Source of the DNA: Staphylococcus phage VB_SavM_JYL01
DNA length: 64,000 nucleotides
Strand: one strand, 5' to 3'
Sequence record: MH159197.1
The notes beneath the pieces were generated by a model. It searched no databases. It had not been told where the DNA came from and saw only the letters and a program-made list of their open reading frames with translations. A program made the translations under genes and the position numbers. Positions 4,144-53,120 of this stretch are shown one piece after another (position 1 is the first letter of the stretch; every line of letters starts with the position of its first letter).

Positions 4144-4202
4144 GATATAGAGTGCCTTAGAGCACTCTTTTATTTGAGATATAATTACTAGGAGGATATT
4201 AA

Positions 4203-5816: not shown

Positions 5817-6465
5817 CAATGGTAATAGATATGTAATAGATATAGATGGTATTCCTGTTGATTTTGAAAGAGACTTGGATAGTTTACTTAACAGGTATAA
5901 AAACCTTAGATGGTCGTTGTATCATAGATATGCAGGTATATTATCTAATGACTTTGAAAGACAAGAATTAAGAGAATATATTGATGAGCAATTTATTAAA
6001 CTAGTTAAAGAATATAATATTAGAAGTAAAGTAGATTTTCCAGGGTATATTAAAGCTAAATTAACTTTGAGAGTTCAAAATAGTTATGTTAAAAAGAATG
6101 AAAAGTATAAACGTACTGAAATTATCGGTAAAAAAGATTATACGGTAGAGTCCTTAACAGAAGATTTAAATGAGGACTTTGAGGATAATCAAATTATGAG
6201 TTATGTATTTGATGATATAGAATTTACAGAAGTTCAAAGTGAGCTACTTAAAGAATTACTTATTAATCCTGAAAGAGAAGATGATGCCTTTATAGTTTCT
6301 CAAGTAGCGGAGAAGTTTGATATGAAAAGAAAAGAAGTAGCAAGTGAATTGACAGAATTAAGAGATTATGTTAGATTTAAAATAAATGCATATCATGAGT
6401 ACTACGCAAAGAAAGAATTAAATAATCATAGAGTTAATACTGAAAATCATATTTGGGAAAACTAG
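5803..6465 (+). CDS. sigma-70-family RNA polymerase sigma factor-like protein
   Basis: A region-2-like stretch (EYIDEQFIKLVKEYNIRSKVDFPGYIKAKLTLRVQNSYVKK) and a C-terminal HTH-like region-4 stretch are present. The SD is gaggggg. Confidence 0.6.
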   Translation: MKKANNGNRYVIDIDGIPVDFERDLDSLLNRYKNLRWSLYHRYAGILSNDFERQELREYIDEQFIKLVKEYNIRSKVDFPGYIKAKLTLRVQNSYVKKNEKYKRTEIIGKKDYTVESLTEDLNEDFEDNQIMSYVFDDIEFTEVQSELLKELLINPEREDDAFIVSQVAEKFDMKRKEVASELTELRDYVRFKINAYHEYYAKKELNNHRVNTENHIWEN

Positions 6466-11085: not shown

Positions 11086-11101
11086 TAGAGGTGACTTAAA
11101 A

Positions 11102-11638
11102 ATGGATTTTAATTTTAGTGCTTTTGATAATAGCTCATTAGCAATGAGAATTAGTGAGGGTGTATACTATTTCAATGATACCCCTTATTACTTTATTGAA
11201 CATATAGAAGAAGAAATGTCTGAGTATGTTATTGTGTATGACATACATGATAGAGAGGAAAAAGAAAATCCTCAGAAGAAATATAGAGTAGAACCTTACC
11301 AACGGACAATACCTGGAGGTACACCTCTTAGTAATTTGATTAAGAGTATGATGCCTCAACGTAAATATCCTAAGAAGGTTGTAGAAGACCCTATATTTGT
11401 AGCTAATGTTATTCCTTTAGGAACAGATACAGTTACAGGTAAAACTGGAAAAGGTTTTTTTGAAAGAGATAAGGATAGAACTATTTACTCACAGAAAGAA
11501 CCAACTAAGGTAGTCCATGGTCAATACACAGGTGTTTTCATAGGTCTAACAAGTGTTAAATGGAATAGAACATATACTCCTTTAGAAAGTGTTGTTGAGT
11601 ATTGCAAGAGAGTAAAAGGAGATAGGTTAAATGTCTAA
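11102..11638 (+). CDS. hypothetical protein
   Basis: 178-aa ORF with an SD tagaggtga. Confidence 0.6.
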   Translation: MDFNFSAFDNSSLAMRISEGVYYFNDTPYYFIEHIEEEMSEYVIVYDIHDREEKENPQKKYRVEPYQRTIPGGTPLSNLIKSMMPQRKYPKKVVEDPIFVANVIPLGTDTVTGKTGKGFFERDKDRTIYSQKEPTKVVHGQYTGVFIGLTSVKWNRTYTPLESVVEYCKRVKGDRLNV

Positions 11639-12822: not shown

Positions 12823-13685
12823 TGTTAAAAGGATTTTCAGAACATGTAGATAAACCTACAACTATTAAAACCTTATATAAGACCTTAACAAGTGGTAAAG
12901 TAGAATTACTAGGTGTATCTTATGGTAGTGATTACTTCCCTTCAGGTGTTACAGTACAAGCTTATATTGAAGATATAGGTAATGAAGATGAAGGTCTGCA
13001 GTTTGTTAATAAAGTAAACGTAGTGGAATCAATGAAACAGGCTGTAGTAGGTATGAACAATCAATTAGGTTCCTCAGGTCTTGGATATGTTAGAACTGAA
13101 CAACTTAAAAAAGAGCTAGAAGAAACTGGATTAATGACAGATTTACTTGCTAGAGGTACTAACTTAACTTCTACTAAGAAAGTGGATATTGTAAGTACTT
13201 TTATTGAGCCTGAAGTAACATATCAAGACATTACTATAGCTAAAGATATTAAGTTACGTCTATACAAACTAGAAGAAGAGTCACCATTAAACGGTTATAC
13301 ACATATTGTATATCTTCTTACTACAGAGAAATTATATGATGGTCAAACACTATTTGGTATGCTATCTAAGAAAGATAAGTTATCTAAAGGAGATACTGAT
13401 AAATTATTAGCATTCTTTAGAAATAATAGTTTAATAAGTAAAAGTGTATTTTGTGTTAAGTTATTAAGTAAAGACTACTACTTCAATTTATATAATACAC
13501 ATGAAACAGGTATATTCTTTTTAGAAGATACGGATATTATTACTATTGCTTGTGGTCAGTCATACGTTAAAGTTAATACTAAAGATATTAAATCTAGTCA
13601 TGTTAAAATTGAAGATGAGACTCATAAATTAACTGAGCTAGTAATTAACTTAAAAGGTGACGACACATTAACTATTTTATTCTAA
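12822..13685 (+). CDS. hypothetical protein
   Basis: 287-aa ORF. Confidence 0.6.
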   Translation: MLKGFSEHVDKPTTIKTLYKTLTSGKVELLGVSYGSDYFPSGVTVQAYIEDIGNEDEGLQFVNKVNVVESMKQAVVGMNNQLGSSGLGYVRTEQLKKELEETGLMTDLLARGTNLTSTKKVDIVSTFIEPEVTYQDITIAKDIKLRLYKLEEESPLNGYTHIVYLLTTEKLYDGQTLFGMLSKKDKLSKGDTDKLLAFFRNNSLISKSVFCVKLLSKDYYFNLYNTHETGIFFLEDTDIITIACGQSYVKVNTKDIKSSHVKIEDETHKLTELVINLKGDDTLTILF

Positions 13686-18663: not shown

Positions 18664-19308
18664 ATGAAAGTTTCAGAAGAAGTAAAACAGAGCTACTTAG
18701 AGAATAAAGCTAATACTAAAATGGATAAGATAAGTTGGTCTGAGTTAAGGTCTAGTCCTGCAGGTAGAACATTAGGAGACTTAATATACTTTAGTGTAGT
18801 TATAATAAATAATATCATAGCTATAGCATTAACATTAATGCTTGGAGATATTATCAAAGATTTAACGGATAGTACCCTAGTAAAAATAATAAGTATATTA
18901 CTTATTATCATCGTTGTATACGGTATACTATCGGCTTTAATACCTATACTAATATTTAAATCTGTATTTCCTGGATGGGAATATACTGAATGGAATAATT
19001 CTTACTATTTGAGATTACCTGGAGAAAAAGATTATAAATACTATAGCTACTGGTATTTAAATTTATTAGGTGTTACTGAGTTTTATCGGACAAATGATGA
19101 GGGTAAAGAAATTAAAGAAACTAGTTTAAGTTGGGTTTTTTATACTAAGGTTGATAGACCTGAGGATATTGACCATTGGAAAAATCAATTAATAACTAAT
19201 AGACCTTTAACAATTTCTGAGTACAAAAAACTAAAGAAGCTAGATAAAGAAAGTGAAATTAGAAAACAAGAAGATTTAGAAGAATACAAGCAATACAATA
19301 GTAATTAA
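18664..19308 (+). CDS. membrane protein
   Basis: 214-aa ORF with an SD aaaaggagg. Confidence 0.6.
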   Translation: MKVSEEVKQSYLENKANTKMDKISWSELRSSPAGRTLGDLIYFSVVIINNIIAIALTLMLGDIIKDLTDSTLVKIISILLIIIVVYGILSALIPILIFKSVFPGWEYTEWNNSYYLRLPGEKDYKYYSYWYLNLLGVTEFYRTNDEGKEIKETSLSWVFYTKVDRPEDIDHWKNQLITNRPLTISEYKKLKKLDKESEIRKQEDLEEYKQYNSN

Positions 19309-34996: not shown

Positions 34997-35282
34997 GACT
35001 AATAGGAGTATGTTGACTAATAAGGAAGATATATAGGAGAGGAGTTAATCAAGTAAAACCAATAAAATCAATTAAAACCAAGTAAAGTAACTAAACAATA
35101 CCTAGAGCCTGGGAAAACTTTTACCTCTCCCACTCAGCCTATTACTTACTACCGACTTCCCTAACTATGTATTCTATAGTTATAATATTCATTTATTATA
35201 CAATACTTAAACTATAGTATTGTAACCTTAATCTATACTGAAGCGGTATTAATCTATTGTTATTATATAATAATCTTATATA

Positions 35283-35414
35283 ATGGTGGTATAATCTAGG
35301 TTATTACATTAGAATCATTCTAATCTAGAATTTTAATCTTTAGACCCTAGGAAAAGTGGTACTAAAATATAGAACCCTATAGGTATGGGATTCTTATTTT
35401 TAAAATTACTAAAA
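35283..35414 (+). ncRNA. candidate small RNA (extended -10 TGGTATAAT to a terminator-like hairpin)
   Basis: An extended -10 aatggtggtataat precedes about 110 nt with no ORF. This ends in agaaccctataggtatgggattct plus tattttt. Confidence 0.25.
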
Positions 35415-35534
35415 AGTATTAGGTTTTCCCTAGGGTAAAGTTTTAATGTACCTAAAATCGTAAGTAGCTCCTTATCATTTAGGTCTGTTTAATTGAGAAT
35501 ATTAGAAGATATCCGCTTCAATTACAATTAAAGG

Positions 35535-35665
35535 TTGACAACTATGAAGCGGTATGTTATACTTAGTATTGTAGGGGTGGTTCCCTACAGACCTAGACTA
35601 TGGTCGTGATTTTGGTTTGCATATTAGTGTCATTCATAACCCCTACTGGAATAGGGGTTATTTTT
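35535..35665 (+). ncRNA. candidate small RNA (promoter TTGACA-17-TATACT to a rho-independent terminator)
   Basis: ttgacaactatgaagcggtatgttatact precedes about 95 nt with no ORF. It holds an internal hairpin tgtaggg-gtggtt-ccctaca and ends in aaccccta-ctggaa-taggggtt plus ttttt. Confidence 0.3.
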
Positions 35666-35674
35666 ATTTAAGTA

Positions 35675-35703
35675 TTGACATACTCTAAGTAGTATGGTAT
35701 GAT
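35675..35703 (+). promoter_or_regulatory. sigma-A-type promoter TTGACA-17-TATGAT
   Basis: ttgacatactctaagtagtatggtatgat. Confidence 0.5.
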
Positions 35704-35726
35704 TAGTATATAAGGAGATGAATAAT

Positions 35727-36023
35727 ATGATTGATATATACTTAGGGGAAAACTATAATACTGATTACTTATCTACTATTATGAATATTATAAAGACTTC
35801 CGCTTCAAGAGAGTTAAGTTATGGGTTTAATAATAAAGAAGCGGATGTAAATATAGAGGATATGAAGTATGAAGGTGATGTTATGCATGTATATGGTACG
35901 ATGTCTATGGATTATCCAGGCTGTATTATTATATGTATTACTAGTGAAGAGACTAAGGTTATATATGGTGGTAACTTTCTAACAGGTACAGGTCTTAGTC
36001 AAGAAGTTAGAGAAAAATTCTAG
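35727..36023 (+). CDS. hypothetical protein, paralog family A member (start MIDIYLGENYN)
   Basis: An SD aaggag sits 9 nt before ATG 35727. The N-terminus matches the 37000, 37290 and 37577 proteins. Confidence 0.65.
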   Translation: MIDIYLGENYNTDYLSTIMNIIKTSASRELSYGFNNKEADVNIEDMKYEGDVMHVYGTMSMDYPGCIIICITSEETKVIYGGNFLTGTGLSQEVREKF

Positions 36024-36034
36024 GGGGAGTTATT

Positions 36035-36205
36035 ATGATTATACCATTAATTATATTCATGATGACCTTCGGTACATTTGCATTCAGTTATGTTGCACAT
36101 GATGCATACAAAGTAGATGAAAAAGGTATCATGTATGCTATGGTAGTTGGTATTGTAGTTATAAATGGGATTGGTTTAGAAATGATAATTGTAGAATGTT
36201 TATAA
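36035..36205 (+). CDS. 56-aa membrane protein (below the track cutoff)
   Basis: An SD tagggggag sits 6 nt before the ATG. The protein has two TM helices. Confidence 0.45.
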   Translation: MIIPLIIFMMTFGTFAFSYVAHDAYKVDEKGIMYAMVVGIVVINGIGLEMIIVECL

Positions 36206-36218
36206 AGGAGGTAGTAAA

Positions 36219-36404
36219 ATGATAGGTCAAATTATACTATTAGCTATTGTTAGTATAGTTACAATAGGTTGTGTAGGATTATTTTTCTATGAGACGTTCA
36301 AGAGTATTAAGTATGATGCTAATGATAAAATCTTTATGATTACTGGGAGTATATTAATGTTAGTTATTATCGTTAGTGGTGCATTAGCTATACTTGGCAT
36401 TTAG
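36219..36404 (+). CDS. small membrane protein
   Basis: 61-aa ORF with two TM helices and an SD aaaggaggt. Confidence 0.5.
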   Translation: MIGQIILLAIVSIVTIGCVGLFFYETFKSIKYDANDKIFMITGSILMLVIIVSGALAILGI

Positions 36405-36672
36405 AGCTCATTTAAGAAGCGGTTAAGTAGTTCATGATAAATTGGTCTAGAAATATATGACCGCTTCTCTATGGAAGGCTGAGAGGGTTTAGAATTGAAA
36501 GGAGAGATATAATGGCTATATTTTTTAGTATTTTATTATTGATTAACATATACTTAATATACTATGAATGTACTTCAGTTACGTTTGATTGGTGTGCACT
36601 GCTTATTTACGTATGCTCATTATGCTCTTGTATTTATTTAATAGTATATTTTGTATAAAAGGAGGAGATATA

Positions 36673-36987
36673 ATGCAAGCAACTATATACTGTGCTAATA
36701 GGTATAGTAAAAATACATTAAAGAGTCTTTTAGAAAAATTAGAAGCGGAGAATAGAAACTTAACATATAGTACTGACATATCAGATATGGAGGAAGTGGA
36801 TGTTATTGTACAACACACTGACTTATCTTTTGCAGAGTTAATGGATTCTTGTGATAGAGTAAGTAAAGGGTCTGACCGCTTCCAAGTATTTGTAGGTAAT
36901 CACGCAGGGTATTATATAAACGGTGATTTATATATTAACGAAGTAGGTAAGTTTATTGTACCTAGGAAAACGAATATGATGATGTAA
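36673..36987 (+). CDS. hypothetical protein, divergent paralog family A member (start MQATIYCANRY)
   Basis: An SD aaaggaggag sits 6 nt before ATG 36673. The shared pattern is IYxxxxYxxxxLKxLLExL...R.LTY. Confidence 0.55.
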   Translation: MQATIYCANRYSKNTLKSLLEKLEAENRNLTYSTDISDMEEVDVIVQHTDLSFAELMDSCDRVSKGSDRFQVFVGNHAGYYINGDLYINEVGKFIVPRKTNMMM

Positions 36988-36999
36988 GGAGGAAATATA

Positions 37000-37290
37000 A
37001 TGATTCATATATTTGTAAAAGAGGATTATAATAAAGAAACATTAAGGAGTTTACTTGAATATATTAATGATACTGTAGGTAGGGAATTAACTTATGGTAT
37101 TAATACAGACTATGATAAGGATGTAGTGATTGAAACCGATGACCCTATAGATGAGGAGAATACGATTGATTTATCAAATCTTCCTCACTTTAAAGATGAC
37201 TTATGTATTCTTATAGAAGAATTATACTGTAAGGCATTTGTTAATGGGGAACCTATTATTATACGTAAGTATGTAGAGGGGATGTTATAA
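37000..37290 (+). CDS. hypothetical protein, paralog family A
   Basis: The protein is MIHIFVKEDYNKETLRSLLEYINDTVGRELTYGIN... The SD is gtaaggagg. Confidence 0.65.
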   Translation: MIHIFVKEDYNKETLRSLLEYINDTVGRELTYGINTDYDKDVVIETDDPIDEENTIDLSNLPHFKDDLCILIEELYCKAFVNGEPIIIRKYVEGML

Positions 37291-37577
37291 TGATTATAAT
37301 ATTTTTAACTGAAAAATATGATGCCAAGGCTTTAAAGAAAGTATTAGAACATATTGATAATTGTAGTAGCAGAGGTCTTAGCTATTTAATGGGAAAAGGA
37401 GAAGCGGATGTATGTATAGAGAAGAATGTATTCAGAGAAAGAGATGATGTAAGGATTAACTCAAACATTATTGATGAAGGTAAACTTTGTATACTCATAA
37501 ATAAAAATGGTTTAGAATGTAGTTACTATAGAGGTGTATCATGTAATATTGGTGCCTTTGTAAAGGAGAGATTATAA
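37290..37577 (+). CDS. hypothetical protein, paralog family A
   Basis: The protein is MIIIFLTEKYDAKALKKVLEHIDNCSSRGLSY... The SD is gagggg. Confidence 0.65.
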   Translation: MIIIFLTEKYDAKALKKVLEHIDNCSSRGLSYLMGKGEADVCIEKNVFRERDDVRINSNIIDEGKLCILINKNGLECSYYRGVSCNIGAFVKERL

Positions 37578-37870
37578 TGATAGAAATATATCTCAGTGAA
37601 AACTATGATAGGGATTTACTCAAAGCAGAATTAAAATGGATTAAAGAGACCGCTTCAAGAGAACTAACTTATGATGTTAATAGAAGCCCAGGATTAGATG
37701 TACATATTAGTCCTTTTAGATATACCAAGGATGAGGTTGAAGAAATGAGCTTACATCCTCAGTTTGAAGATGATGTATGTGTATTTATAGCTGAAACATG
37801 GATACATGAGTATCGTAATGGTAAATCAATAGGTGTAGATAGTATGGAAGAATATGTAAAGGAGATGTAA
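37577..37870 (+). CDS. hypothetical protein, paralog family A
   Basis: The protein is MIEIYLSENYDRDLLKAELKWIKETASRELTY... The SD is aaaggagag. Confidence 0.65.
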   Translation: MIEIYLSENYDRDLLKAELKWIKETASRELTYDVNRSPGLDVHISPFRYTKDEVEEMSLHPQFEDDVCVFIAETWIHEYRNGKSIGVDSMEEYVKEM

Positions 37871-37873
37871 TTA

Positions 37874-38122
37874 ATGGTAGAAACTTATTATACAGTATAT
37901 CATAAGAATAGTATGAAAACTATTAAGGATTACTTAAGTAGAAGTGATTTAATTGACTTCTTATATAAGACTTGGCATAAGGATATAAGTAATATATACC
38001 CAACAGATTATACTACGTATGAAACAAAATTCTGTATAGACATAGATGTAGTTAGATTAATTGAAGCGGTTAATGAAGAAGGTGTATTACTTATTAATGA
38101 AGGTAATATTGTAGAGTGGTAG
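37874..38122 (+). CDS. hypothetical protein, paralog family B
   Basis: The protein contains YTVYHKNSMKTIKDYLSRSD... The SD is aaggagatg. Confidence 0.6.
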   Translation: MVETYYTVYHKNSMKTIKDYLSRSDLIDFLYKTWHKDISNIYPTDYTTYETKFCIDIDVVRLIEAVNEEGVLLINEGNIVEW

Positions 38123-38134
38123 GAGGAGATAAAT

Positions 38135-38374
38135 ATGAGTCAGTTTTTCACGTATACAGTGTATCATACAGAAACAGCTAAAGTAGTAGCTAAGAATTTG
38201 TTTGATGCATCATTGGTGCACCTTATTAACAAGATGATAGAGAAAGATATAGTTAAGGATATTAATTTAGAATATTACATGAATACACGTGGTGTAGTTA
38301 TAGATATGAGTAGACTACTGGATGATATAGAATCACAGGGTGTATTTCTATTCAAACGTAAGCTACATGGATAA
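38135..38374 (+). CDS. hypothetical protein, paralog family B
   Basis: The protein contains TYTVYHTETAKVVAKNL...LLDDIESQGVFLF. The SD is taggaggag. Confidence 0.6.
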   Translation: MSQFFTYTVYHTETAKVVAKNLFDASLVHLINKMIEKDIVKDINLEYYMNTRGVVIDMSRLLDDIESQGVFLFKRKLHG

Positions 38375-38485
38375 TAGGTTAGACCCTAAAAAGTTTGAGA
38401 TACAATAGGATGCTTAGGATAATAGGATAAAAATAACTTAGGATGCTTAGGATGAAATACGATACGATAGGGAGGTTAAGTTAAG

Positions 38486-38725
38486 ATGCAAGAGTTAATA
38501 ACTTATATAATTTACCATAAAGAATCAGGTAAAGTAGTAGCACAGGATTTAAGTGAATTAGAAACTATTGAACTTATATACAAAATGATAGAAGAGGGAT
38601 TAGTAAAAGATATAGAATTATCTAACTACCGTCTTTTTAGTGGGAATATAGATATACTTAACTTATTAGTAGACATACGTAAACAAGGTATATTTGATTT
38701 TGAACATACTTGGCACACAAGATAA
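38486..38725 (+). CDS. hypothetical protein, paralog family B
   Basis: The protein contains TYIIYHKESGKVVAQDL...LLVDIRKQGIFDF. The SD is atagggagg. Confidence 0.6.
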   Translation: MQELITYIIYHKESGKVVAQDLSELETIELIYKMIEEGLVKDIELSNYRLFSGNIDILNLLVDIRKQGIFDFEHTWHTR

Positions 38726-38736
38726 GGAGGGATAGG

Positions 38737-39081
38737 ATGATAGTTATATATTCAGATGAGTCTAGGGATTACTTAAGAGATGAGTTCTTACCTTGGCTTA
38801 ATGATAGAGATAGATATTTAAAATATTATAAGAATGAGTTACCTGAAGATATAGACTCTTCTTATGTTGTATCAGTTGTATACTGTAGGGATATGGAAGG
38901 TCTTATGAATAGGAAAGATATTCTTATTGGTAATAGTTATAGAGAGCCTGTAGCTGTATTAGGTGTTCCTGAATTTTTTGGTAACTATTCTAATTATTAC
39001 TATTATAAAGGAGAGCATATAAGTAAGCATGACCTAGGAGAGATAATTAGGTTAAAGGCTTGGCAACGTAATTTTGACTAA
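38737..39081 (+). CDS. hypothetical protein (start MIVIYSDE)
   Basis: An SD aaggaggg sits 7 nt before ATG 38737. Confidence 0.55.
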   Translation: MIVIYSDESRDYLRDEFLPWLNDRDRYLKYYKNELPEDIDSSYVVSVVYCRDMEGLMNRKDILIGNSYREPVAVLGVPEFFGNYSNYYYYKGEHISKHDLGEIIRLKAWQRNFD

Positions 39082-39165
39082 GTAGCTCTCTCTAATTTCA
39101 CTAAGTAGCTCCCTAGGAATTGCCTAAGTAGCTCGGTGTGATTTTACCCTAAGTAGCTCCCTCTG
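39077..39165 (+). repeat. four direct repeats of CTAAGTAGCTC with 22-25 bp periodicity (iteron-like)
   Basis: gaCTAAGTAGCTCtctc, caCTAAGTAGCTCccta, gcCTAAGTAGCTCggtg and ccCTAAGTAGCTCcctc. Confidence 0.7.
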
Positions 39166-39196
39166 TTTTCTATTAGTTTATTTTAACCGCTTCACG

Positions 39197-39212
39197 TGTC
39201 TATATATAGACA
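39197..39212. promoter_or_regulatory. 16-bp perfect palindrome TGTCTATATATAGACA (operator-like)
   Basis: Read directly from the sequence. It lies in ORF-free DNA between the iteron-like repeats and -10-like boxes. Confidence 0.5.
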
Positions 39213-39565
39213 ATCGGAATAATAGCAGACCGCAAAAAGAAATACACTAGGATATTATTCCCAGTGTATTGTATAATTTTTTTATATAATATTTGTAGAA
39301 GCGGTTGGGGTTTGTCCCTTGCCTTACTACACTTAATATATTACAGTATAGTTATTCAGAAGTCAATACTTTTGAGTAACTTTTTTTTAAATTCTTTTTT
39401 CTTCTATATAATAGTAGTTTTTAGCCCTAAAAAAAGTTTTTTAAAAGAATTTACATTTTCTTATTGACTTATTAATCATATGATAGTAATATAAAGGTAC
39501 AGCAAGAGAACAGCAACAAGGTATTAGAATTATATAAAAAAATTATTTAATTGGAGATGATTTAA

Positions 39566-39874
39566 ATGGATGTAAAAGAAATTGCAGACACTATAATGGA
39601 GTTGTGGCAAATGGACGGATACAGATGTACAGAACCGCCATTATATGAAAGCACATTAAACCACACACGCACATACACGGCTTTAATTGTAAGCATTAAA
39701 GGTAATTACGACACTGTTCAAATGTTCCGTAAAACGCCTATAATGAGCATGAGAGGGCAAAGCCAACCGGCTAGCATGTTAGTAAATGTAATTGATGACG
39801 TGATTATAATCGTATATGAAAATACGGTTTACGGGGTACAGAATAAAGAAATAAAATTTATTGAAGAAATTTAA
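39566..39874 (+). CDS. hypothetical protein
   Basis: 102-aa ORF with an SD aattggagatg. Confidence 0.55.
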   Translation: MDVKEIADTIMELWQMDGYRCTEPPLYESTLNHTRTYTALIVSIKGNYDTVQMFRKTPIMSMRGQSQPASMLVNVIDDVIIIVYENTVYGVQNKEIKFIEEI

Positions 39875-39972
39875 AAATAGGGGTTGCAATACCCCTTAAG
39901 ATGTAGTAATATAATAGATGTAAGGGATAGCAACACACCTTAAAAAACTTTTTAAAAAAGTTAAAGAAAAGT

Positions 39973-40001
39973 GTTGACACCTTACAAGATACATGTTAAT
40001 A
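39973..40001 (+). promoter_or_regulatory. LTR early-type promoter TTGACA-N15-cATGTTAATATTAgt (extended -10 TGTTAATAT) with an upstream A6/T6 UP-like element
   Basis: ttaaaaaactttttaaaaaagttaaagaaaagtgttgacaccttacaagatacatgttaatattag. Confidence 0.5.
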
Positions 40002-40079
40002 TTAGTATAGAAGTTAAGACAAGCCACATAGCAAATAACGAAATTAAATAAAAAAATTATAGAATAGGATTTGATTATT

Positions 40080-40367
40080 ATGACAAACAAAAATTACTTA
40101 TACGAAGAAACTCACACAGTACAAGGGCAAGATATTACGGCTTTCAGAATTCCAAATGACACAAACGGCAACCCACGTTATGTAGTGCATTTCATGGATT
40201 TAGACATTAAACTAGCAGACTATGACAACATCAATAAGCTATACGGATTTAAAAAATATACTGCTAAATGGTTTGGCGGTGGTGTAGTATTCCAAAGCTA
40301 TAATATTGAAGATACATTAAATTACGCACTATCTAATGTTAAAGAAATAGAAGCGGTTAAGAATTAA
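40080..40367 (+). CDS. hypothetical protein (start MTNKNYLY)
   Basis: The conserved leader aggatttgattattATG is present. Confidence 0.55.
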   Translation: MTNKNYLYEETHTVQGQDITAFRIPNDTNGNPRYVVHFMDLDIKLADYDNINKLYGFKKYTAKWFGGGVVFQSYNIEDTLNYALSNVKEIEAVKN

Positions 40368-40376
40368 AACCGCTTC
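40350..40376. other. inverted repeat GAAGCGGTT-(9)-AACCGCTTC overlapping the gene stop
   Basis: gaagcggttaagaattaaaaccgcttc. Confidence 0.6.
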
Positions 40377-40416
40377 TGAATTAAATAAAAAAATTATATA
40401 AAAAGGGTATGATATT

Positions 40417-40608
40417 ATGAAATTTAAAATAGAAAAAAATAACAGTGATATAAAAACTTTATGGAATTTAGCTAAAAATGGATATATGAGTTATCAAACT
40501 GTACACAATATATTTAAAAATGAATCAGATGAATTTATTATATTTAACAGTAAACAAACTTATAATAAATTTATGGAATTAAGATATAATAGAAGTGCAA
40601 TTCAATAG
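40417..40608 (+). CDS. hypothetical protein
   Basis: 63-aa ORF with an SD aaaagggtatg. Confidence 0.5.
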   Translation: MKFKIEKNNSDIKTLWNLAKNGYMSYQTVHNIFKNESDEFIIFNSKQTYNKFMELRYNRSAIQ

Positions 40609-40619
40609 TATAAAAAAGT

Positions 40620-40665
40620 TATATAATTCCCTAGGATTAAATTCCTAGGGATTTTTATTTGTTTT
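40620..40665 (+). terminator. terminator-like hairpin
   Basis: ccctaggatt-aaa-ttcctaggg followed by atttttattt. Confidence 0.5.
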
Positions 40666-40699
40666 AATTTATATAAAAAAATTATTTAATAAATAAATT

Positions 40700-41100
40700 A
40701 GTGTAAAATTGACTGTTGACAAGAATATATTTTTTATGGTATAATGAAGTGAAGACCTTTTTTAGTATAAAAAAATTATTATATAAAAAAATTATATAAA
40801 AAAGTTTAGTTCCGGTCTTTCTCCCCACCTTGTCATATTTATAGTGGAAGGGTTAGGCGGGTTACCACTGTTTTACTTTCTATATATAGTATACTATGAA
40901 TAATGGTAATTGTCAACACCTTTCAGAAACTTTTTTTACTTTATTTTATTATTATATAAAAAAATTATACATATTTTAGGGCTCCACTTCCATTATATAA
41001 TAATTCGGTCTTAATGTCAATACTTTTATTCAAAAAAGTTTTTTAAATTAGTTTCAACAAATCTATTGACTTATGTTTATTTCTATAGTAATATATAGTT
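40700..41100. repeat. intergenic repeat element, copy A (about 390 bp; homologous to 42890..43150, with a diverged core at 45520..45600)
   Basis: The shared order is as follows. A + promoter ttgaca..tataatgaagtgaa comes first, followed by ttttttagtataaaaa and attatataaaaaaattatataaa. A GC-rich core ggtcttt..cccc follows, then a leftward TTGACA-17-TATACT promoter. It closes with aaaaaagtttt..aaatctattgactta..taatatatag. Confidence 0.65.
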
Positions 41101-41124
41101 ATACCAACAAGGGAGGCAATACAA

Positions 41125-41283
41125 ATGCTAAAATTTAAATGGAAAAACAAAACAATCAAATCAACTCAAAAAACGGATAACATTCTTTTACTTCTTATAG
41201 GTGGTTTAGTTGCAACAGTCACACCTAAACTTGTAAACTGGTTTTTACTACTACAAGATAATATAAATATTTTTTTAAGATAA
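41125..41283 (+). CDS. 52-aa membrane protein (below the track cutoff)
   Basis: An SD caagggagg sits 9 nt before the ATG. The protein has one TM helix. Confidence 0.45.
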   Translation: MLKFKWKNKTIKSTQKTDNILLLLIGGLVATVTPKLVNWFLLLQDNINIFLR

Positions 41284-41331
41284 CTATTGACAACTTAGAA
41301 ACAACGTGTTAATATTAAGATACAAGGTAAG

Positions 41332-41351
41332 GGAAGCGGTTGACCGCTTCC
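41332..41351. promoter_or_regulatory. palindrome GGAAGCGGT-tg-ACCGCTTCC directly downstream of promoter 41287 (operator-like)
   Basis: ttgacaacttagaaacaacgtgttaatattaagatacaaggtaagggaagcggttgaccgcttccgacc. Confidence 0.5.
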
Positions 41352-41449
41352 GACCTAAATAAAAAAAGTTTAAAAAAACTATTGACAGTCACTTGAAACC
41401 ATGATATTATTAAGATAACAAAAAACAAACAGAAAAGGAATTGATTATA

Positions 41450-41773
41450 ATGAAATTTATCAAAACTATCGAAAACTTATTAGAAAAAGCAGAAAACAAA
41501 GGGCAAGCAATTTTAAACGGTCGTTACTTTGATGGGTATAGCAAAGGTGAGCTTGAGGAAAAATATGCAATTGAAATTGATGGCAACAAATTGATTATGC
41601 GTCACTGGGGTACACAAACAATTGAGATTGATTTAAGCATAAATGAGATTGTTTCATATTACGGTGAAAGCAATTCAGACCGTGACAGTTTAAACACACT
41701 TGTATATTGCTTAGGAATTGCGCCAAACTTTAGATACTTACCAAGCAAAAACTTATTCATTTACGAAAATTAA
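41450..41773 (+). CDS. hypothetical protein (start MKFIKTIENL)
   Basis: The conserved leader aaaaggaattgattataATG is present. Confidence 0.55.
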   Translation: MKFIKTIENLLEKAENKGQAILNGRYFDGYSKGELEEKYAIEIDGNKLIMRHWGTQTIEIDLSINEIVSYYGESNSDRDSLNTLVYCLGIAPNFRYLPSKNLFIYEN

Positions 41774-41782
41774 TTAAATAAA

Positions 41783-41815
41783 GGGCTTGACTTCCAAGCC
41801 CTACCATGTTATTAT
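41783..41815 (+). promoter_or_regulatory. hairpin with TTGACT in its loop followed by an extended -10 (hairpin-embedded -35 cassette)
   Basis: agggcttg-acttc-caagccct, then accatgttattattaa. Confidence 0.5.
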
Positions 41816-41872
41816 TAAATTGTAAGGTAATCAAGCACAACGACAAAATAAACTGAAAAGGGATTGATGAAA

Positions 41873-42379
41873 ATGACAAATAATAAGGATTTTAATAAAA
41901 ATTTCTTAAGACTACTAAAAGTTAAAAATGTAAATGACAAAAGGGTGCAAGGTTTCATAAACAAGCATGACATTAAACTTAAAGACAAAGAAGAAAGCTC
42001 ACAAGGATATGTTAACGTATTATATAAGGGTTATGACTTTGTAATATCAAAAGACTATGCAGGTCAAACGGCGTTATATGTTAACATGCGTAATTTAGGG
42101 GTTGACTACAAACATTTTAAACATTTAGATTTTAATAATATTGTTCAAGCGTTAGACAGAAAAAATAATAATCGTGTTGAATGTAAGGAAACAAAAACAC
42201 AACAATATAAAGAATTTAAACACCGTCAAAAGACAGAAAAAGAAATGTTAACATACTATGAAAAGGATATCGAAAAGCTAAAAGAAGAACTGGAACGAAC
42301 ACAAAAAATCTACAATGATAAAATAAAGAAAATAGAAAATTACGATAAAAAAATATCTAGACTAAAAAAATCAAAATAA
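41873..42379 (+). CDS. hypothetical basic/coiled-coil protein (start MTNNKDF)
   Basis: The conserved leader aaagggattgatgaaaATG is present. Confidence 0.55.
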   Translation: MTNNKDFNKNFLRLLKVKNVNDKRVQGFINKHDIKLKDKEESSQGYVNVLYKGYDFVISKDYAGQTALYVNMRNLGVDYKHFKHLDFNNIVQALDRKNNNRVECKETKTQQYKEFKHRQKTEKEMLTYYEKDIEKLKEELERTQKIYNDKIKKIENYDKKISRLKKSK

Positions 42380-42448
42380 GGCTTGACACTTTCAAGCCCT
42401 CATGATATACTTAGTATAACAAATCAAAAAGAAAAGGAATTGATGAAA

Positions 42449-42829
42449 ATGTTCAAATTACAAAATAAAGTGGAAATTATCGTACCTAAGGAAGATAACA
42501 ACGGCGTTGAGATTGCAGACAAACGTATTAAAGAATATGTAAATAGCATCACAATGGAAGCGGGTGGTTGTACTATTACAGAAATCAAAGGGCAATGGTA
42601 CTCAGAAGATGAAAAACGTATAATGGAAGATAACAACTTAAATCTTGAGTGGTACTACATGCAAGACAGTGCCAAATTCATGACAGTTGAATTAAAAGGC
42701 ATTGTAAGACGTTTAATTGAAGTTTACGGACAAGAAGCAATAAGCATTAAAGTTAACGGCACATTGTACATTGTAGACCAATCAGACATTGAAGAATTAC
42801 ACACAACATTATTAAATATCATGAAATAA
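42449..42829 (+). CDS. hypothetical protein (start MFKLQNKVEI)
   Basis: The conserved leader aaaaggaattgatgaaaATG follows the hairpin-promoter aaggcttgacactttcaagccct. Confidence 0.55.
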   Translation: MFKLQNKVEIIVPKEDNNGVEIADKRIKEYVNSITMEAGGCTITEIKGQWYSEDEKRIMEDNNLNLEWYYMQDSAKFMTVELKGIVRRLIEVYGQEAISIKVNGTLYIVDQSDIEELHTTLLNIMK

Positions 42830-42889
42830 AAAATTTATATAAACCGCTTCGGATTAAATTCTTGAAGTGGTTATTTTCTTTTAAATTAG

Positions 42890-43150
42890 TGCTTGACAAA
42901 TGTACTAAAAAATGAGATAATGAAGTGAACGCATTTTTTAGTATAAAAATAATATTATATAAAAAAATTATATAAATGAATTTATTTCAGGTCTTTCCCG
43001 TAACCCCTCTTGGGCTACCCTGGTATCTCTACAATTATTATTATACTATAGGTCATGAAGATTGTCAATAACTTTCTTCAAAATAATTTATTTAAAAAAG
43101 TTTCATAAATCTATTGACTTACTATTAATTATGGTGTAATATATAGATAT
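42890..43150. repeat. intergenic repeat element, copy B
   Basis: Aligns with copy A. It contains the leftward promoter TTGACA-17-TATAAT (RC of attattatactataggtcatgaagattgtcaata) and the GC core ggtctttcccgtaacccctcttgggctaccctggta. Confidence 0.65.
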
Positions 43151-43271
43151 AAGGTTAAGGAAGCGGAACACCTAAAAAAGAAATTAAAAAAACTTTTAAA
43201 AAGGTGTTGACAAACTTCAAACCACATGTTAATATTAAGATAACAAATAAAACAAAAAGGAATTGATAATT

Positions 43272-43493
43272 ATGAACAGATTAGAAATAATAAAAGACAC
43301 GGCAATGGAATACATCATTATGATGGATAACGGAGTTATGGACGGACAATTGACACAAGAAGAATACAACGAAGCGGTTAGCTTTGAAAAGGTTTACGAT
43401 TACACTTTATCAGAAGCAAATCAAGAATGTAAATTCTTAGGCGGTAAAATTTTAACTTTCCTAGTACATGAAGCAATTGAAGAATACGCATAA
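43272..43493 (+). CDS. hypothetical acidic protein (start MNRLEIIK)
   Basis: The conserved leader aaaaggaattgataattATG is present. Confidence 0.5.
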   Translation: MNRLEIIKDTAMEYIIMMDNGVMDGQLTQEEYNEAVSFEKVYDYTLSEANQECKFLGGKILTFLVHEAIEEYA

Positions 43494-43574
43494 AAAAACT
43501 TAATCAAAGGGGTTGACATTCAACCCCTTACCATGTTAATATTAATATATACCAAATGAGAGGAATTGATAATT

Positions 43575-43712
43575 ATGAGATACGAAATCGTAACATTAGT
43601 TAATGGAGAATTATTCATGTTTGCAACATTTAAGAAAGCAGAGGCAGAAAATAAATATCAAGAATGGTGTGACTTGTACGGTCAAGAAAATGTAAGCATG
43701 GAAAAAAATTAA
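43575..43712 (+). CDS. 45-aa hypothetical protein (below the track cutoff)
   Basis: The leader agaggaattgataattATG follows the hairpin-promoter aaggggttgacattcaacccctt. Confidence 0.4.
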   Translation: MRYEIVTLVNGELFMFATFKKAEAENKYQEWCDLYGQENVSMEKN

Positions 43713-43782
43713 AATAAGGGGTTGACACTTAACCCCTTAGATGTTATTATTAATATATACTAAAGAAAAGGAAATGATAAAA

Positions 43783-44019
43783 ATGAAATTATTAAACCAA
43801 GAAAATGAAATCGTAAAAGAAATGGTAACTTTTAGAGACGTAAAACAAGCCCTAATTTGGGAATACATCGACCACATAGATAATAACATCCTAAACAATG
43901 AAATTCATGACACAGAAGCGGTTGTGGTTACTTCTGAGACTCTACAATCAATCAAATTTGCAGACACTATGGAAGACCTGCAGGAATACATTGCAGATAT
44001 CAATTGGAAATTAGTTTAA
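43783..44019 (+). CDS. hypothetical protein (start MKLLNQENEIV)
   Basis: The leader aaaaggaaatgataaaaATG follows the hairpin-promoter aaggggttgacacttaacccctt. Confidence 0.5.
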   Translation: MKLLNQENEIVKEMVTFRDVKQALIWEYIDHIDNNILNNEIHDTEAVVVTSETLQSIKFADTMEDLQEYIADINWKLV

Positions 44020-44113
44020 AAAAAGTTTTAAATAACTGTTGACACCTTAGCAAATAGATGGTAATATAAGAGTATAAAGAAAAACAAAAAAAAACGAAAA
44101 GGATTTGATTATA

Positions 44114-44458
44114 ATGACAAACTTACTAAACACTATTGAGATGGATTTTGAATACTATGGAGTACAATTTGAAAATGGATGGAAACACAATGCCTACACT
44201 GTAGAGCTAACACATAATGGAGTTACCGAAGAATTTGACTGGAAACAAGGAATAGGAATTCACGAAGAGCCTGAACTAGAAAGCATCTTAGAAAGCTTAA
44301 TGCTAGATATTCATTACTATGAAGAAGATATTTATTCAATGTATGAGGACGAAGAACAGGCAGAAAAAATAATTGAGAAGTTAGAAGAACAAACTAAAAA
44401 GGTAAATAAACTATTTACAGATGAGGAACAAGCAGACCTAGTTGAATACTTTGAATAG
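44114..44458 (+). CDS. hypothetical acidic protein (start MTNLLNTIEM)
   Basis: The leader aaaaggatttgattataATG follows promoter 44039 ttgacaccttagcaaatagatggtaatat. Confidence 0.55.
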   Translation: MTNLLNTIEMDFEYYGVQFENGWKHNAYTVELTHNGVTEEFDWKQGIGIHEEPELESILESLMLDIHYYEEDIYSMYEDEEQAEKIIEKLEEQTKKVNKLFTDEEQADLVEYFE

Positions 44459-44483
44459 TATCAGGAAACACACAGAGACCCAC

Positions 44484-44505
44484 AGAAGCGGATTAATCCG
44501 CTTCT
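44484..44505. other. 22-bp perfect palindrome AGAAGCGGATTAATCCGCTTCT
   Basis: Read directly from the sequence. It sits immediately after the stop of 44114..44458. Confidence 0.6.
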
Positions 44506-44532
44506 AATATAATTAATCAGGAGATGTTAAAG

Positions 44533-44697
44533 ATGACAATTAAAGAGGTTATAAGCCAATTAGAATTAGTAGAAAATAAAGAACTTGAATTGTACGTATG
44601 CGACAAGGAAAATAATAACATTTCAATTAATGATATTATTTTGTTCGATAGTGAAGCAGAGCACACAGAAAACAACCCACTAGGGATTAATTATTAG
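44533..44697 (+). CDS. 54-aa hypothetical protein (below the track cutoff)
   Basis: The leader aatcaggagatgttaaagATG duplicates the leader of the 44710 gene. Confidence 0.45.
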   Translation: MTIKEVISQLELVENKELELYVCDKENNNISINDIILFDSEAEHTENNPLGINY

Positions 44698-44709
44698 GAG
44701 ATGTTGAAC

Positions 44710-44883
44710 ATGAACACAAGAAGGGTAAACAAAGCGTTAAACGAAGCAGTTAGATTATTAGACAAGCAAATAGCAGACACACAGAAAACAATGCAGGAGT
44801 TAAATAAACAACTAGAACAACAGATAAAAGCTAAGCAGGAGCTAATGACATTAGTTGATGCTATGACTGGTGATGATGAGTAA
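44710..44883 (+). CDS. hypothetical coiled-coil protein (start MNTRRVNK)
   Basis: The leader attaggagatgttgaacATG is present. Confidence 0.5.
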   Translation: MNTRRVNKALNEAVRLLDKQIADTQKTMQELNKQLEQQIKAKQELMTLVDAMTGDDE

Positions 44884-45152
44884 TGAACGTTAGAGAGGTT
44901 CATGATGTCGTTAAGAGTGCAAAGAGCAAACTCCTGCAGGAGCAGAATAATATTAATAATGTAATGATATATGAATACATCACAGAAGAGCTTCACAGAC
45001 GCACACAGAGAAGCGGAACAATACAGATGAACAATAACACCGCTTCATATAGTAATGGCTCATATGGTAGCTTAGAAGAGCTTAGAGAAGCTTATGACCT
45101 CTCTTCTCTATCTACTGATGAGATTAAAGAACTACTTGAAACATTTGTTTAA
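44883..45152 (+). CDS. hypothetical protein
   Basis: 89-aa ORF whose start overlaps the upstream stop. Confidence 0.5.
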   Translation: MNVREVHDVVKSAKSKLLQEQNNINNVMIYEYITEELHRRTQRSGTIQMNNNTASYSNGSYGSLEELREAYDLSSLSTDEIKELLETFV

Positions 45153-45236
45153 ATTATTTTATCAAAACGCTTTACAATCTTTTAGTTTGTATGATATAAT
45201 GAACTTAACAAATTAAAAGAAAAGGAAATGATGAAC

Positions 45237-45458
45237 ATGAGAGACTTACAAGAGAGAAAAAGAGAATTAAAAACATTACTATTTAACTTAGCCATAGAGA
45301 AGAATAGAGCAACGGATGAGCAGTTAAGAGAAGTATTAGAACAATCACATCAAGAAGTGATGTATCAATTAAATAAAGTTAGAAAAGAAATTGAAATTTT
45401 AGTTGAAGAAAAAGAAAGAGAATTTTGGAATGATTTCGATTTTAATGGATTAGATTAA
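45237..45458 (+). CDS. hypothetical protein (start MRDLQERK)
   Basis: Promoter TTTACA-18-TGaTATAAT is followed by the leader aaaaggaaatgatgaacATG. Confidence 0.5.
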   Translation: MRDLQERKRELKTLLFNLAIEKNRATDEQLREVLEQSHQEVMYQLNKVRKEIEILVEEKEREFWNDFDFNGLD

Positions 45459-45486
45459 GAGGGAATAAAATCCCTCTTTTATTTTT
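45459..45486 (+). terminator. rho-independent terminator
   Basis: agaggga-ataaaa-tccctct followed by tttatttttat. Confidence 0.65.
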
Positions 45487-45519
45487 ATCCTATTATATAA
45501 TTTTTTTATATTATACGGG

Positions 45520-45600
45520 GGCAGGGGTAAAATGCCACTCAATGGGGGTGGGTCTATATACCCCTACGGTCTACCCAGGTACTTATTTTTTGGGGAAAAT
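45520..45600. repeat. GC-rich structured element, third diverged copy of the repeat core
   Basis: gggtctatatacccctacggtctacccaggtac aligns with copy B ggtctttcccgtaacccctcttgggctaccctggta. It is followed by ttattttttgggg. Confidence 0.4.
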
Positions 45601-52458: not shown

Positions 52459-52502
52459 TTAAATACCCCTTTTTTACTTTATCTATTTATAATATATCAA
52501 AA

Positions 52503-52532
52503 TAAAAAACACCTATTAATGAAAATAGGTGT
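52503..52532 (-). terminator. rho-independent terminator
   Basis: aaaaaa-acacctat-taatgaaa-ataggtgt. On the - strand it is followed by a T-run. Confidence 0.65.
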
Positions 52533-52639
52533 CCGACAGAGCTCCCGTACTTAGATTACGGTTAATAATATTTTACGACAATTATATGAGACCCTCTGTC
52601 GTTAAAACACTCGTCACTGCGTTATTCCACAAGATATTT

Positions 52640-52976: not shown

Positions 52977-53048
52977 TGGACTCTGTAGGATTCGAACCTA
53001 CAGTCAAACCGTTATGAGCGGTTGGCTTTACCTTTAAGCTAAGAGTCC
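52977..53048 (-). tRNA. tRNA-Met (anticodon CAU), elongator-type (or a lysidine tRNA-Ile2; cannot be distinguished)
   Basis: The RC reads GGACTCT-TA-GCTT-AAAGGTA-AAGC-C-AACCG-CTCATAA-CGGTT-TGACT-GTAGG-TTCGAAT-CCTAC-AGAGTCC-A. All four stems are perfect, G1-C72 is paired, and CCA is not encoded. Confidence 0.8.
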
Positions 53049-53056
53049 TAGAAATA

Positions 53057-53120
53057 TCCTGAGAGAGGACTCGAACCTCAACGACTAGGTAGCTACAACT
53101 AGCCAATGCCATTACTCAGG
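53057..53120 (-). other. tRNA-like remnant (acceptor stem plus T-arm retained; no canonical D or anticodon arm)
   Basis: The RC reads TCCTGAG...TGAGG-TTCGAGT-CCTCT-CTCAGGA-T. Only 34 nt lie between the acceptor and the T-arm, and no 5-7-5 anticodon arm can be folded. Confidence 0.3.

Follow-up and report, generated by a model that had tools for sequence, protein, structure and literature searches.

In this work, we describe an array of four direct copies of the 11-base motif CTAAGTAGCTC, found at the 3' end of the early gene treH in a window of 64,000 nucleotides (the whole stretch of DNA that was analysed) from Staphylococcus phage VB_SavM_JYL01 (sequence record MH159197.1). The array is real and unique in the phage genome, and its core is kept in about 300 genomes from two phage subfamilies infecting two host genera, with completely diverged spacers; furthermore, this core is independent of the neighbouring genes and physically coupled to terminators. 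Because the repeats are non-random, display an invariant core with variable spacers, and are conserved in related phages, the array is almost certainly a recognition site for some factor. Our preferred reading, which we put forward tentatively, is that it may constitute a conserved cis-element of Herelleviridae marking the end of an early transcription unit, that is, a transcribed multicopy recognition element for a conserved factor, and we favour recognition at the transcript level over an array bound as duplex DNA. By sequence identity, the window belongs to a P108/SAP23-like Kayvirus (Herelleviridae, Twortvirinae), as it matched about 208 Staphylococcus phage records, with 99.8% identity to P108, SAP23, SYL and others.

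The four copies are exact, lie on the + strand and start at 39078, 39101, 39124 and 39149, with start-to-start distances of 23, 23 and 25 bp. A first-pass annotation, made by a model from the letters of the window, had reported four direct repeats phased at roughly two helical turns and starting in the last codons of gene 38737-39081, and this description holds: the gene is treH, whose TAA stop codon (39079-39081) lies inside copy 1. Copy 3 is accompanied by TGTGAT in the window versus TATGAT in phage K-type relatives. With up to one mismatch allowed, 7 matches to the motif were obtained in the window as compared with 1.06 expected; 7 matches were reached in 1 of 100 shuffled sequences and were never clustered, whereas the real window holds four exact copies within 82 bp. 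Further, in a genome of ~141 kb, reconstructed from the window and three pieces of P108, one exact copy (18690, - strand) and two one-mismatch copies (6241, - strand; 35460, + strand) were found elsewhere. The motif is therefore infrequent across the genome and, as described below, kept in related phages, which are the two points on which the earlier proposal had been said to depend.

In the treA-treH operon, most of the untranslated 3' tail is taken up by the array, which runs from the treH stop codon toward a palindromic hairpin and a bidirectional terminator. Downstream of the last copy, the order of elements is an AT-rich tract of 28 bp, a minus-strand Chi heptamer, a perfect palindrome of 16 bp (already noticed in the first-pass annotation and confirmed here), and a hairpin followed by a T-run; a CAGAC box, present 3' of the Staphylococcus arrays, reads CAGACCGCAAAAA in the window (39226-39238). 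The hairpin folds with -14.6 kcal/mol (z -4.6); in phages K and 812 it is annotated as terminating the convergent gene treI. In contrast, the RNA of the array displays no significant fold (z -0.71, with 39060-39295 folded), and only the downstream hairpins do. The promoter scan (-35 and -10 hexamers separated by 16-18 bp) detected no + strand sigma-A promoter within 39078-39165; the -10-like boxes previously noticed near the repeats are present further downstream, where the scan assigns them to promoter-like sites of the next genes.

The conservation of the element was assessed among related phages. Every Twortvirinae locus fetched carries the array at the equivalent position and on the same strand, with four copies in K, 676Z, 812 and Stab20, five in T-SE-E2, Stab23 and JS1, six in KMM1, and three in Golestan-105, as well as variant or degenerate arrays in phiSA12 (ACAAGTAGTTCCCTGTATTT, three times), PSU6 and S25-3. 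Considering Twortvirinae and Bacillus phages together, the element consists of 2-6 direct copies of T[A/T]AGTAGCTC(CC)T. In 43 units from the Staphylococcus phages, each of the five AGTAG positions is retained in 42-43; the base that follows is C in 37 and T in 6, and then come T (42/43) and C (43/43). Positions between the cores vary, and spacings of 20, 23, 25, 30 and 36-37 bp were observed in Staphylococcus phages. Three phages, S25-3, phiSA12 and Golestan-105, carry an inserted gene of 609 bp for an HNH-type homing endonuclease, which separates the array from treH or its replacement (positions 796-1404, 943-1551 and 838-1446 of the respective locus pieces), and the repeats beside this insertion are altered, as expected if the endonuclease targets that junction.

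The query built from the consensus array also matched eight Bacillus pumilus phage records, and up to 132 records of Bacillus Herelleviridae were matched in a pattern scan and a BLAST with the TsarBomba array. In these phages the core is usually TAGTAGCTCCCTGCA, in arrays of 2-5 copies, with spacings of 18, 28, 30-32, 50-51 and 65 bp; carriers include TsarBomba, BCU4, Bc431v3, BM15, Thurquoise, Hakuna, Grass and Deep Blue, with Bastillevirinae among them. Phage Bobb harbors 3.7 perfect units of 32 bp (CTTAGTAGCTCCCTACACAGAATAGGAATTTC), located 3' of a gene and followed by a terminator and a promoter. In the Wphvirus (Hakuna-type) phages, a TGcTATAAT box lies ~13 nt upstream of the array. The genes around the arrays are not shared: blastp of the proteins encoded within 4 kb of the arrays gave no match between Staphylococcus and Bacillus phages, and the neighbours of the Bacillus arrays have no Pfam family in common. 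Since the element is kept near letter-for-letter in about 300 genomes in which every neighbouring gene has been replaced, it must have a conserved partner.

What does accompany the core is an intrinsic terminator, which adjoins the array in all loci. The array is also co-oriented with its flanking early genes in every locus examined (11 from Staphylococcus and 12 from Bacillus phages), and in most of them it begins 0-80 nt from the stop codon of the upstream gene; in the Agatevirus phages Bobb and phiAGATE, genes and array share the opposite strand of the record, and the array lies near the upstream stop codon there too. In the Thurquoise group, the TsarBomba group and BM15, which are lineages infecting the Bacillus cereus group, one copy itself supplies the 5' arm of a strong hairpin with a U-tract behind it (z -2.5 to -4.5), and the 3' arm of the terminator pairs with the local variant of the motif (CUCCCU/AGGGAG versus GCUCACUG/CAGUGAGC). 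The use of a copy as 5' arm was observed in Priestia phages as well, with example positions in locus pieces of Bacillus phages at 2249-2300, ~11099-11140 and ~1399-1440, and further conserved boxes, GCCGCA and AATATTCAGACTAT, lie downstream of the terminators of the Bacillus cereus-group and Priestia phages.

Published transcriptomes of phage K place the array within a transcript. The early promoter of the treA-treH unit in the window is equivalent to promoter no. 1 of phage K, located at K position 425 (supplement PMC9241854). According to the RNA sequencing (RNA-seq) data of that study, this promoter serves the transcription unit TU1, comprising gp001-gp008 (treA-treH), with a 'marked end of transcription' at K 3067 (supplement PMC9241854), a position that is the phage K equivalent of the window palindrome. 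Because TU1 spans the array and ends at the palindrome, the array corresponds to the 3' untranslated tail of an early mRNA. In another RNA-seq study of phage K, gp001-004 and gp007-008 were assigned to later expression clusters (C2/C3) as compared with the immediate-early gp010-021 (C1); since the flanking gene groups fall in different clusters, the array also lies at a border of expression blocks. The features of the locus are collected in Table 1.

Table 1. Features of the array locus and its surroundings in the window.
Feature	Position	Strand	Remarks
Solitary one-mismatch copy GTAAGTAGCTC(C), also read GTAAGTAGCTCC	35460-35470	+	349 bp from terminal-repeat left end
Early promoter of treA-treH unit, TTGACA-17-TATACT	35535-35563	+	Chi heptamer in spacer; promoter scan
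Second promoter-like site, just upstream of treA	35675-35703	+	near-consensus; 17-nt spacer: TTGACAtactCTAAGTAGtatggTATGAT
treH, terminal-repeat-encoded protein H, 114 aa	38737-39081	+	last gene of treA-treH early operon
Repeat copy 1, CTAAGTAGCTC	39078-39088	+	context ttgaCTAAGTAGCTCtctct; TGA, TAA, TAG in three different frames
Repeat copy 2, ttcaCTAAGTAGCTCcctaggaatt	39101-39111	+	commonest 23-bp unit type
Repeat copy 3, ttgcCTAAGTAGCTCggtgtgattttacc	39124-39134	+	25-bp unit type
Repeat copy 4, taccCTAAGTAGCTCcctctg	39149-39159	+	
S. aureus Chi heptamer GAAGCGG	39187-39193	-	+ strand reads AACCGCTTCA; 28 bp after last repeat
16-bp perfect palindrome TGTCTATATATAGACA	39197-39212	.	sequence
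Hairpin 39241-39270 and T-run 39277-39283	39241-39283	.	predicted bidirectional intrinsic terminator (terminator scan)
Deletion junction, 367 bp	39272-39286	.	alignment with SAP23 (SAP23 4161-4527)

Under the transcript-level reading, the copies would function independently and multivalently as sites recognised by a trans-acting factor common to Staphylococcus and Bacillus phages; it might come from the host, being shared among Bacillales, or be a core phage protein. This factor would read the motif on the transcript or during transcription, and may either affect the adjacent terminator, through termination or read-through and 3'-end formation, or be titrated by the abundant early RNA. The irregular spacing (18-65 bp) and the varying copy number fit independent sites and not a phased DNA-protein filament.

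Several observations weigh against this proposal, starting with the fact that we infer both the factor and its recognition on RNA rather than on DNA. In the Bacillus cereus-group phages, most copies lie 3' of the terminator that holds the first copy, and the Hakuna array has no preceding gene. Co-orientation with the genes could just have been inherited with the block. No Rfam family was found at the array in the window and in 7 related loci, and no conserved complementary RNA target was identified in the phage: a wobble-tolerant complement search gave 15 matches versus 7.9 expected, which is not above chance. The sole exact complement (GAGCTACTTAG on the + strand, 18690-18700) lies 27 nt into a gene of 214 aa (PHROG 3854) that begins a transcription unit behind a strong promoter; it was rejected as an antisense target, since synonymous changes break the complement in JD007, S25-3 and KMM1, and it is attributed to chance. 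A one-mismatch complement at 6241-6251 was likewise discarded, as it lies in the middle of a sigma-factor gene (PHROG 1025). The motif is similar to boxA, considered below, but departs from the published consensus at positions 5, 6 and 9, and the palindrome and AT-rich tract of the window look origin-like. A resemblance to the 5' region of tRNA (GTAGCTC) and to a stretch of 23S rRNA is too short to count.

The same conserved core might instead be read on duplex DNA, with a sequence-specific phage or host protein occupying the four sites, where it would insulate or block transcription or provide a platform, regulatory or architectural, between expression blocks; we regard this as a close rival of the transcript-level reading, somewhat less probable than it. 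An asymmetric core of 8-11 bp in direct repeats with diverged spacers, at one locus per genome, is what such an array would look like, and its location between gp001-008 and gp010-021, which belong to different expression clusters (C2/C3 versus C1), counts in its favor. In addition, CTAAGTAG occurs at 35685-35692, within the 17-nt spacer of the second promoter-like site upstream of treA, and the related GTAAGTAG is found at the equivalent spot of promoter-like sites in phiSA12, where the site precedes the HNH gene, and in Stab23; moreover, some copies in the Hakuna and Thurquoise phages are found where upstream transcription should have ended already. Conversely, helical phasing is not conserved, the array has neither a DNA-binding gene linked to it nor conserved neighbours, and the orientation is always sense relative to the transcripts; an unchanged specificity of 8-11 bp across subfamilies and host genera would also be unusual for a phage regulator.

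It has a small chance of being right that no factor is involved, and that the repeats are a by-product of gene-end cassettes, each bringing stop codons in multiple frames and a G+C-rich 5' half-stem of a terminator, which were duplicated by slippage or unequal recombination and persist by closing reading frames and seeding terminators when gene cassettes are swapped. TAA/TAG stops are present in each unit, and since spacings of 23, 25, 31 and 32 bp shift the frame between these stop-bearing units, all frames are closed. Unrelated upstream genes of different phages end at or in the first copy, the junction of treH and the array received the HNH gene in the three phages mentioned above, and spacers resemble terminator half-stems, as illustrated by CCCTAGGA, common to the terminator TCCCTAGGAttaaatTCCTAGGGA at 40628. 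The adjacent deletion of 367 bp points in the same direction: it is flanked by 15-bp direct repeats (TATAATTTTTTTATA), distinguishes the window from all its closest relatives, and removes the minus-strand gene treI (112 aa), which PSU6 likewise lacks; all top matches align to the window in two pieces, spanning 1268 bp. However, neutral duplication fails to explain an identical core in so many genomes with diverged spacers, and neither stop codons nor a stem arm require an invariant AGTAGCTC.

The first-pass annotation had interpreted the repeats as iterons or as arrays of sites for a DNA-binding protein. The part of this proposal that stands is the recognition-site array, given a non-random, conserved and asymmetric motif; the iteron or origin part is opposed by phasing, flanks, skew and neighbours. 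In the latter, an initiator would bind the four repeats and open the adjacent AT-rich tract, which we consider very improbable, the array being unlikely to be a phage replication origin. The layout in the window, in which an AT-rich tract of 28 bp and a 16-bp palindrome come after four direct repeats spaced by 23-25 bp, recalls that of the lambda origin, each genome has one such locus, and the replication proteins of the phage family are conserved, all of which count in favor of an origin. Nevertheless, the phasing that was called typical of iterons is not conserved, with spacings of 20, 30 or 36-37 bp in relatives (20-37 bp across Staphylococcus phages) and of 18-65 bp in Bacillus phages. JS1, KMM1, Stab23 and phiSA12 have lost both the palindrome and the AT-rich tract, and in Bacillus cereus-group phages G+C-rich sequence stands in their place. 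No initiator-like (Rep-like) gene adjoins the array, whose neighbours differ between Staphylococcus and Bacillus phages; the arrays of S25-3 and PSU6, both viable phages, consist only of degenerate copies; in phage K the region forms the tail of an mRNA; and plasmids contain nothing similar. Further, the cumulative skews, of GC as well as AT, reach their minimum at a distance of ~42-43 kb from the terminal-repeat end, versus ~4 kb for the array, and this minimum coincides with the putative origin that two RNA-seq papers placed between gp190 and gp191 (PMC9241854, PMC11598898). Our results correct a tempting mis-annotation of the array as a replication origin.

A more specific RNA-based alternative is that the array is a decoy, mimicking either the boxA site of Nus factors, with NusB/S10 being recruited or titrated, or the antitoxin RNA or cleavage site of a host abortive-infection RNase. 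The pseudo-ToxI repeats of phage PhiTE are the model for the antitoxin-mimic form, and lambda nutR is placed, like the array, after a stop codon and before a terminator. The array is located directly 3' of a stop codon and 5' of a terminator, both GCTC and GTTC variants occur, as in the GYTC of the boxA consensus, the tandem repeats of 20-36 nt are transcribed early and followed by a terminator (with perfect units of 32 nt in Bobb), and their dispensability fits an accessory role in host takeover or anti-defence. On the other hand, the commonest unit, GCTCCCTAGGA, has C at positions 5 and 6 and G at position 9, thereby departing from the boxA consensus GYTCTTTAANA, which is gamma-proteobacterial and not from Firmicutes, and in which a C4T/T6C double mutation abolished Nus-factor recruitment (PMC5725501). 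The best-conserved bases (AGTA) fall outside the boxA-like part, the unit lengths in Staphylococcus phages are not uniform, no toxin gene lies nearby, and no ToxI-type Rfam match was found. A decoy of this specific kind is a very doubtful proposition. In a broader form, to which we give a slim chance, the AGTAGCTC arrays would represent a family-wide non-coding host-takeover RNA, an early transcript tail with 2-6 copies that captures a Bacillales-wide factor; the Nus antitermination factors and a defence or processing RNase are candidates for the captured factor, with termination being reprogrammed or the factor neutralised.

Records whose first base is the physical end of the genome show the array to be located within the long terminal repeat, at a depth of ~4 kb. 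The first base of SAP23 corresponds to window 35112, falling inside CCTGG|G, and CCCAGGTACTTA, the 12-mer of the right border, has its sole exact copy at 45574-45585; because both map there, the terminal repeat extends over ~35112-45585. TAAGTACCTGGG and CCCAGGTACTTA have been described as 12-bp 'bracket' inverted repeats at the borders of Kayvirus terminal repeats (PMC6022877, PMC4111496), and the left-border copy TAAGTACCTGGG, expected at the repeat's left end, was not found with up to 2 mismatches. A role of the array as a genome-end or packaging signal was ruled out by phage phiAGATE, in which it lies at 11.5 kb on the minus strand, together with its genes, in the opposite orientation and outside the terminal repeat of 2.67 kb; given this location outside the repeat, the element is tied to early transcription units and not to genome ends. 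The terminal redundancy of phage SPO1 contains no such motif; it has four direct repeats of its own, CCTTCATTCAAAACTA(T/C), at 13229-13356, at the border of its 13.2-kb terminal redundancy, with unrelated sequence.

A second property of the terminal repeat concerns the heptamer GAAGCGG, which is the S. aureus Chi sequence (PMC11442139; bioRxiv 10.1101/2021.07.08.451572). The copy located 3' of the array is kept in every Twortvirinae locus examined. As compared with 0.38 copies expected in the 64-kb window, the ~141-kb genome contains 29, of which 27 lie in the ~10.5-kb terminal repeat (16 on the + and 11 on the - strand), spread over window positions 35240-45046 and including coding sequences and promoter spacers; none was found in 78 kb of non-repeat P108 DNA. 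Every Twortvirinae terminal-repeat fragment displays a density of 1-2.5 copies per kb. This distribution suggests DNA ends that, on entry, tame RexAB/AddAB and promote RecA-dependent joining of the repeats, and the packing hints at how incoming linear DNA copes with the host RexAB/AddAB nuclease. No paper describing such Chi clustering in terminal repeats was found in the literature searched.

Regarding the genes of this region, the counterpart of treH is annotated as TreH in 676Z and phage K and corresponds to PHROG 3522 (function not known), with no Pfam match; TreH, TreI, TreJ and seven other Tre proteins gave no functional match in Pfam or PHROG. Elsewhere in the window, an Rfam match above the gathering score was obtained for the DUF3800-I RNA (52498-52629, - strand, 46.4 bits), which adjoins a tRNA-Met gene (52977-53048, - strand) and lies near the area where phage K papers report a very abundant long non-coding RNA beside a tRNA gene; a tRNA-like fragment, GGTTCGAGTCC..., is located just upstream of the tRNA-Met gene (~53055-53100).

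Outside Herelleviridae, nothing similar to the array was found in plasmids. A scan for paired copies in 185,579 species genomes (one per bacterial species) detected none in Staphylococcus, Bacillus or Bacillales, and only unrelated tandem repeats in other phyla, at about the number expected by chance. Exact CTAAGTAGCTC was observed as short tandem repeats with a period of 10-30 bp in Motiliproteus, a cyanobacterium, Chitinophaga and Pirellulaceae; tandem occurrences in unrelated genomes amounted to 6 in 596 Gb, about what chance and the abundance of tandem repeats would give. Many core matches from IMG/VR and from the pattern scan were collagen-like or Ser-rich coding repeats and were discarded. 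The motif was not found in the literature searched, and no mention of the array is made in the papers dealing with fRuSau02, phage 812, Thurquoise and phiAGATE.

Phage therapy of S. aureus relies mainly on Kayviruses, such as phage K, ISP, Sb-1 and Team1, and the genes in the terminal-repeat 'host-takeover' region of these phages are nearly all without known function. The array described here is short, unique in the genome and easily deleted, and therefore offers access to the way in which early transcription units end or become insulated, or to an RNA- or DNA-based mechanism of takeover or anti-defence. If the arrays were indeed a host-takeover RNA, they would constitute a new class of phage RNA decoys, common to the therapeutic Kayviruses of Staphylococcus and the Bastillevirinae of Bacillus.

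The element shares traits with several known systems. Iteron origins (the lambda origin; the iterons of plasmids RK2, pPS10 and P1; the T4 oriE repeats) also consist of direct copies of an asymmetric motif spaced at ~20-25 bp and, as in the window, an AT-rich tract and a palindrome follow the repeats in an early-transcribed region. Unlike them, the array has no linked initiator gene, its phasing and flanks are not conserved, the skew and the published origin prediction point elsewhere, it is dispensable or degenerate in some relatives, and it constitutes an mRNA 3' tail. With lambda nutR/boxA, the array has in common a linear motif that is placed after a stop codon and before a terminator and that starts with GYTC and continues with pyrimidines, and its conservation across hosts would be accounted for by a host factor that is itself universally conserved; the array differs in that its best-conserved part, T[A/T]AGTA, lies upstream of the boxA-like part, in its 2-6 copies, and in having no boxB hairpin. 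ToxI and phage pseudo-ToxI are likewise transcribed tandem repeats of tens of nt with a terminator, accessory in nature and variable in copy number, whereas the array has mixed unit lengths (23, 25, 30 and 36 nt) of which only 8-11 nt per unit are conserved, no ToxN-like toxin gene nearby, and no Rfam match. Like the array, the Kayvirus bracket repeats are conserved, short and non-coding; they occur in the same phages, and TAAGTA is common to both. Nevertheless, they are single inverted copies at the borders, as opposed to four direct copies ~4 kb inside the repeat, and array copies differ from the bracket 12-mer at 2 or more of 12 bases, with 8 of 12 agreeing for the commonest unit. Finally, the T4-type PeSL cassettes resemble the array as a repeated regulatory motif bordering small early genes in a plastic host-takeover region with gain and loss of cassettes; PeSLs are dispersed at many gene borders and combine a promoter with a hairpin, whereas the array is found at one tandem locus per genome and has a non-promoter core.

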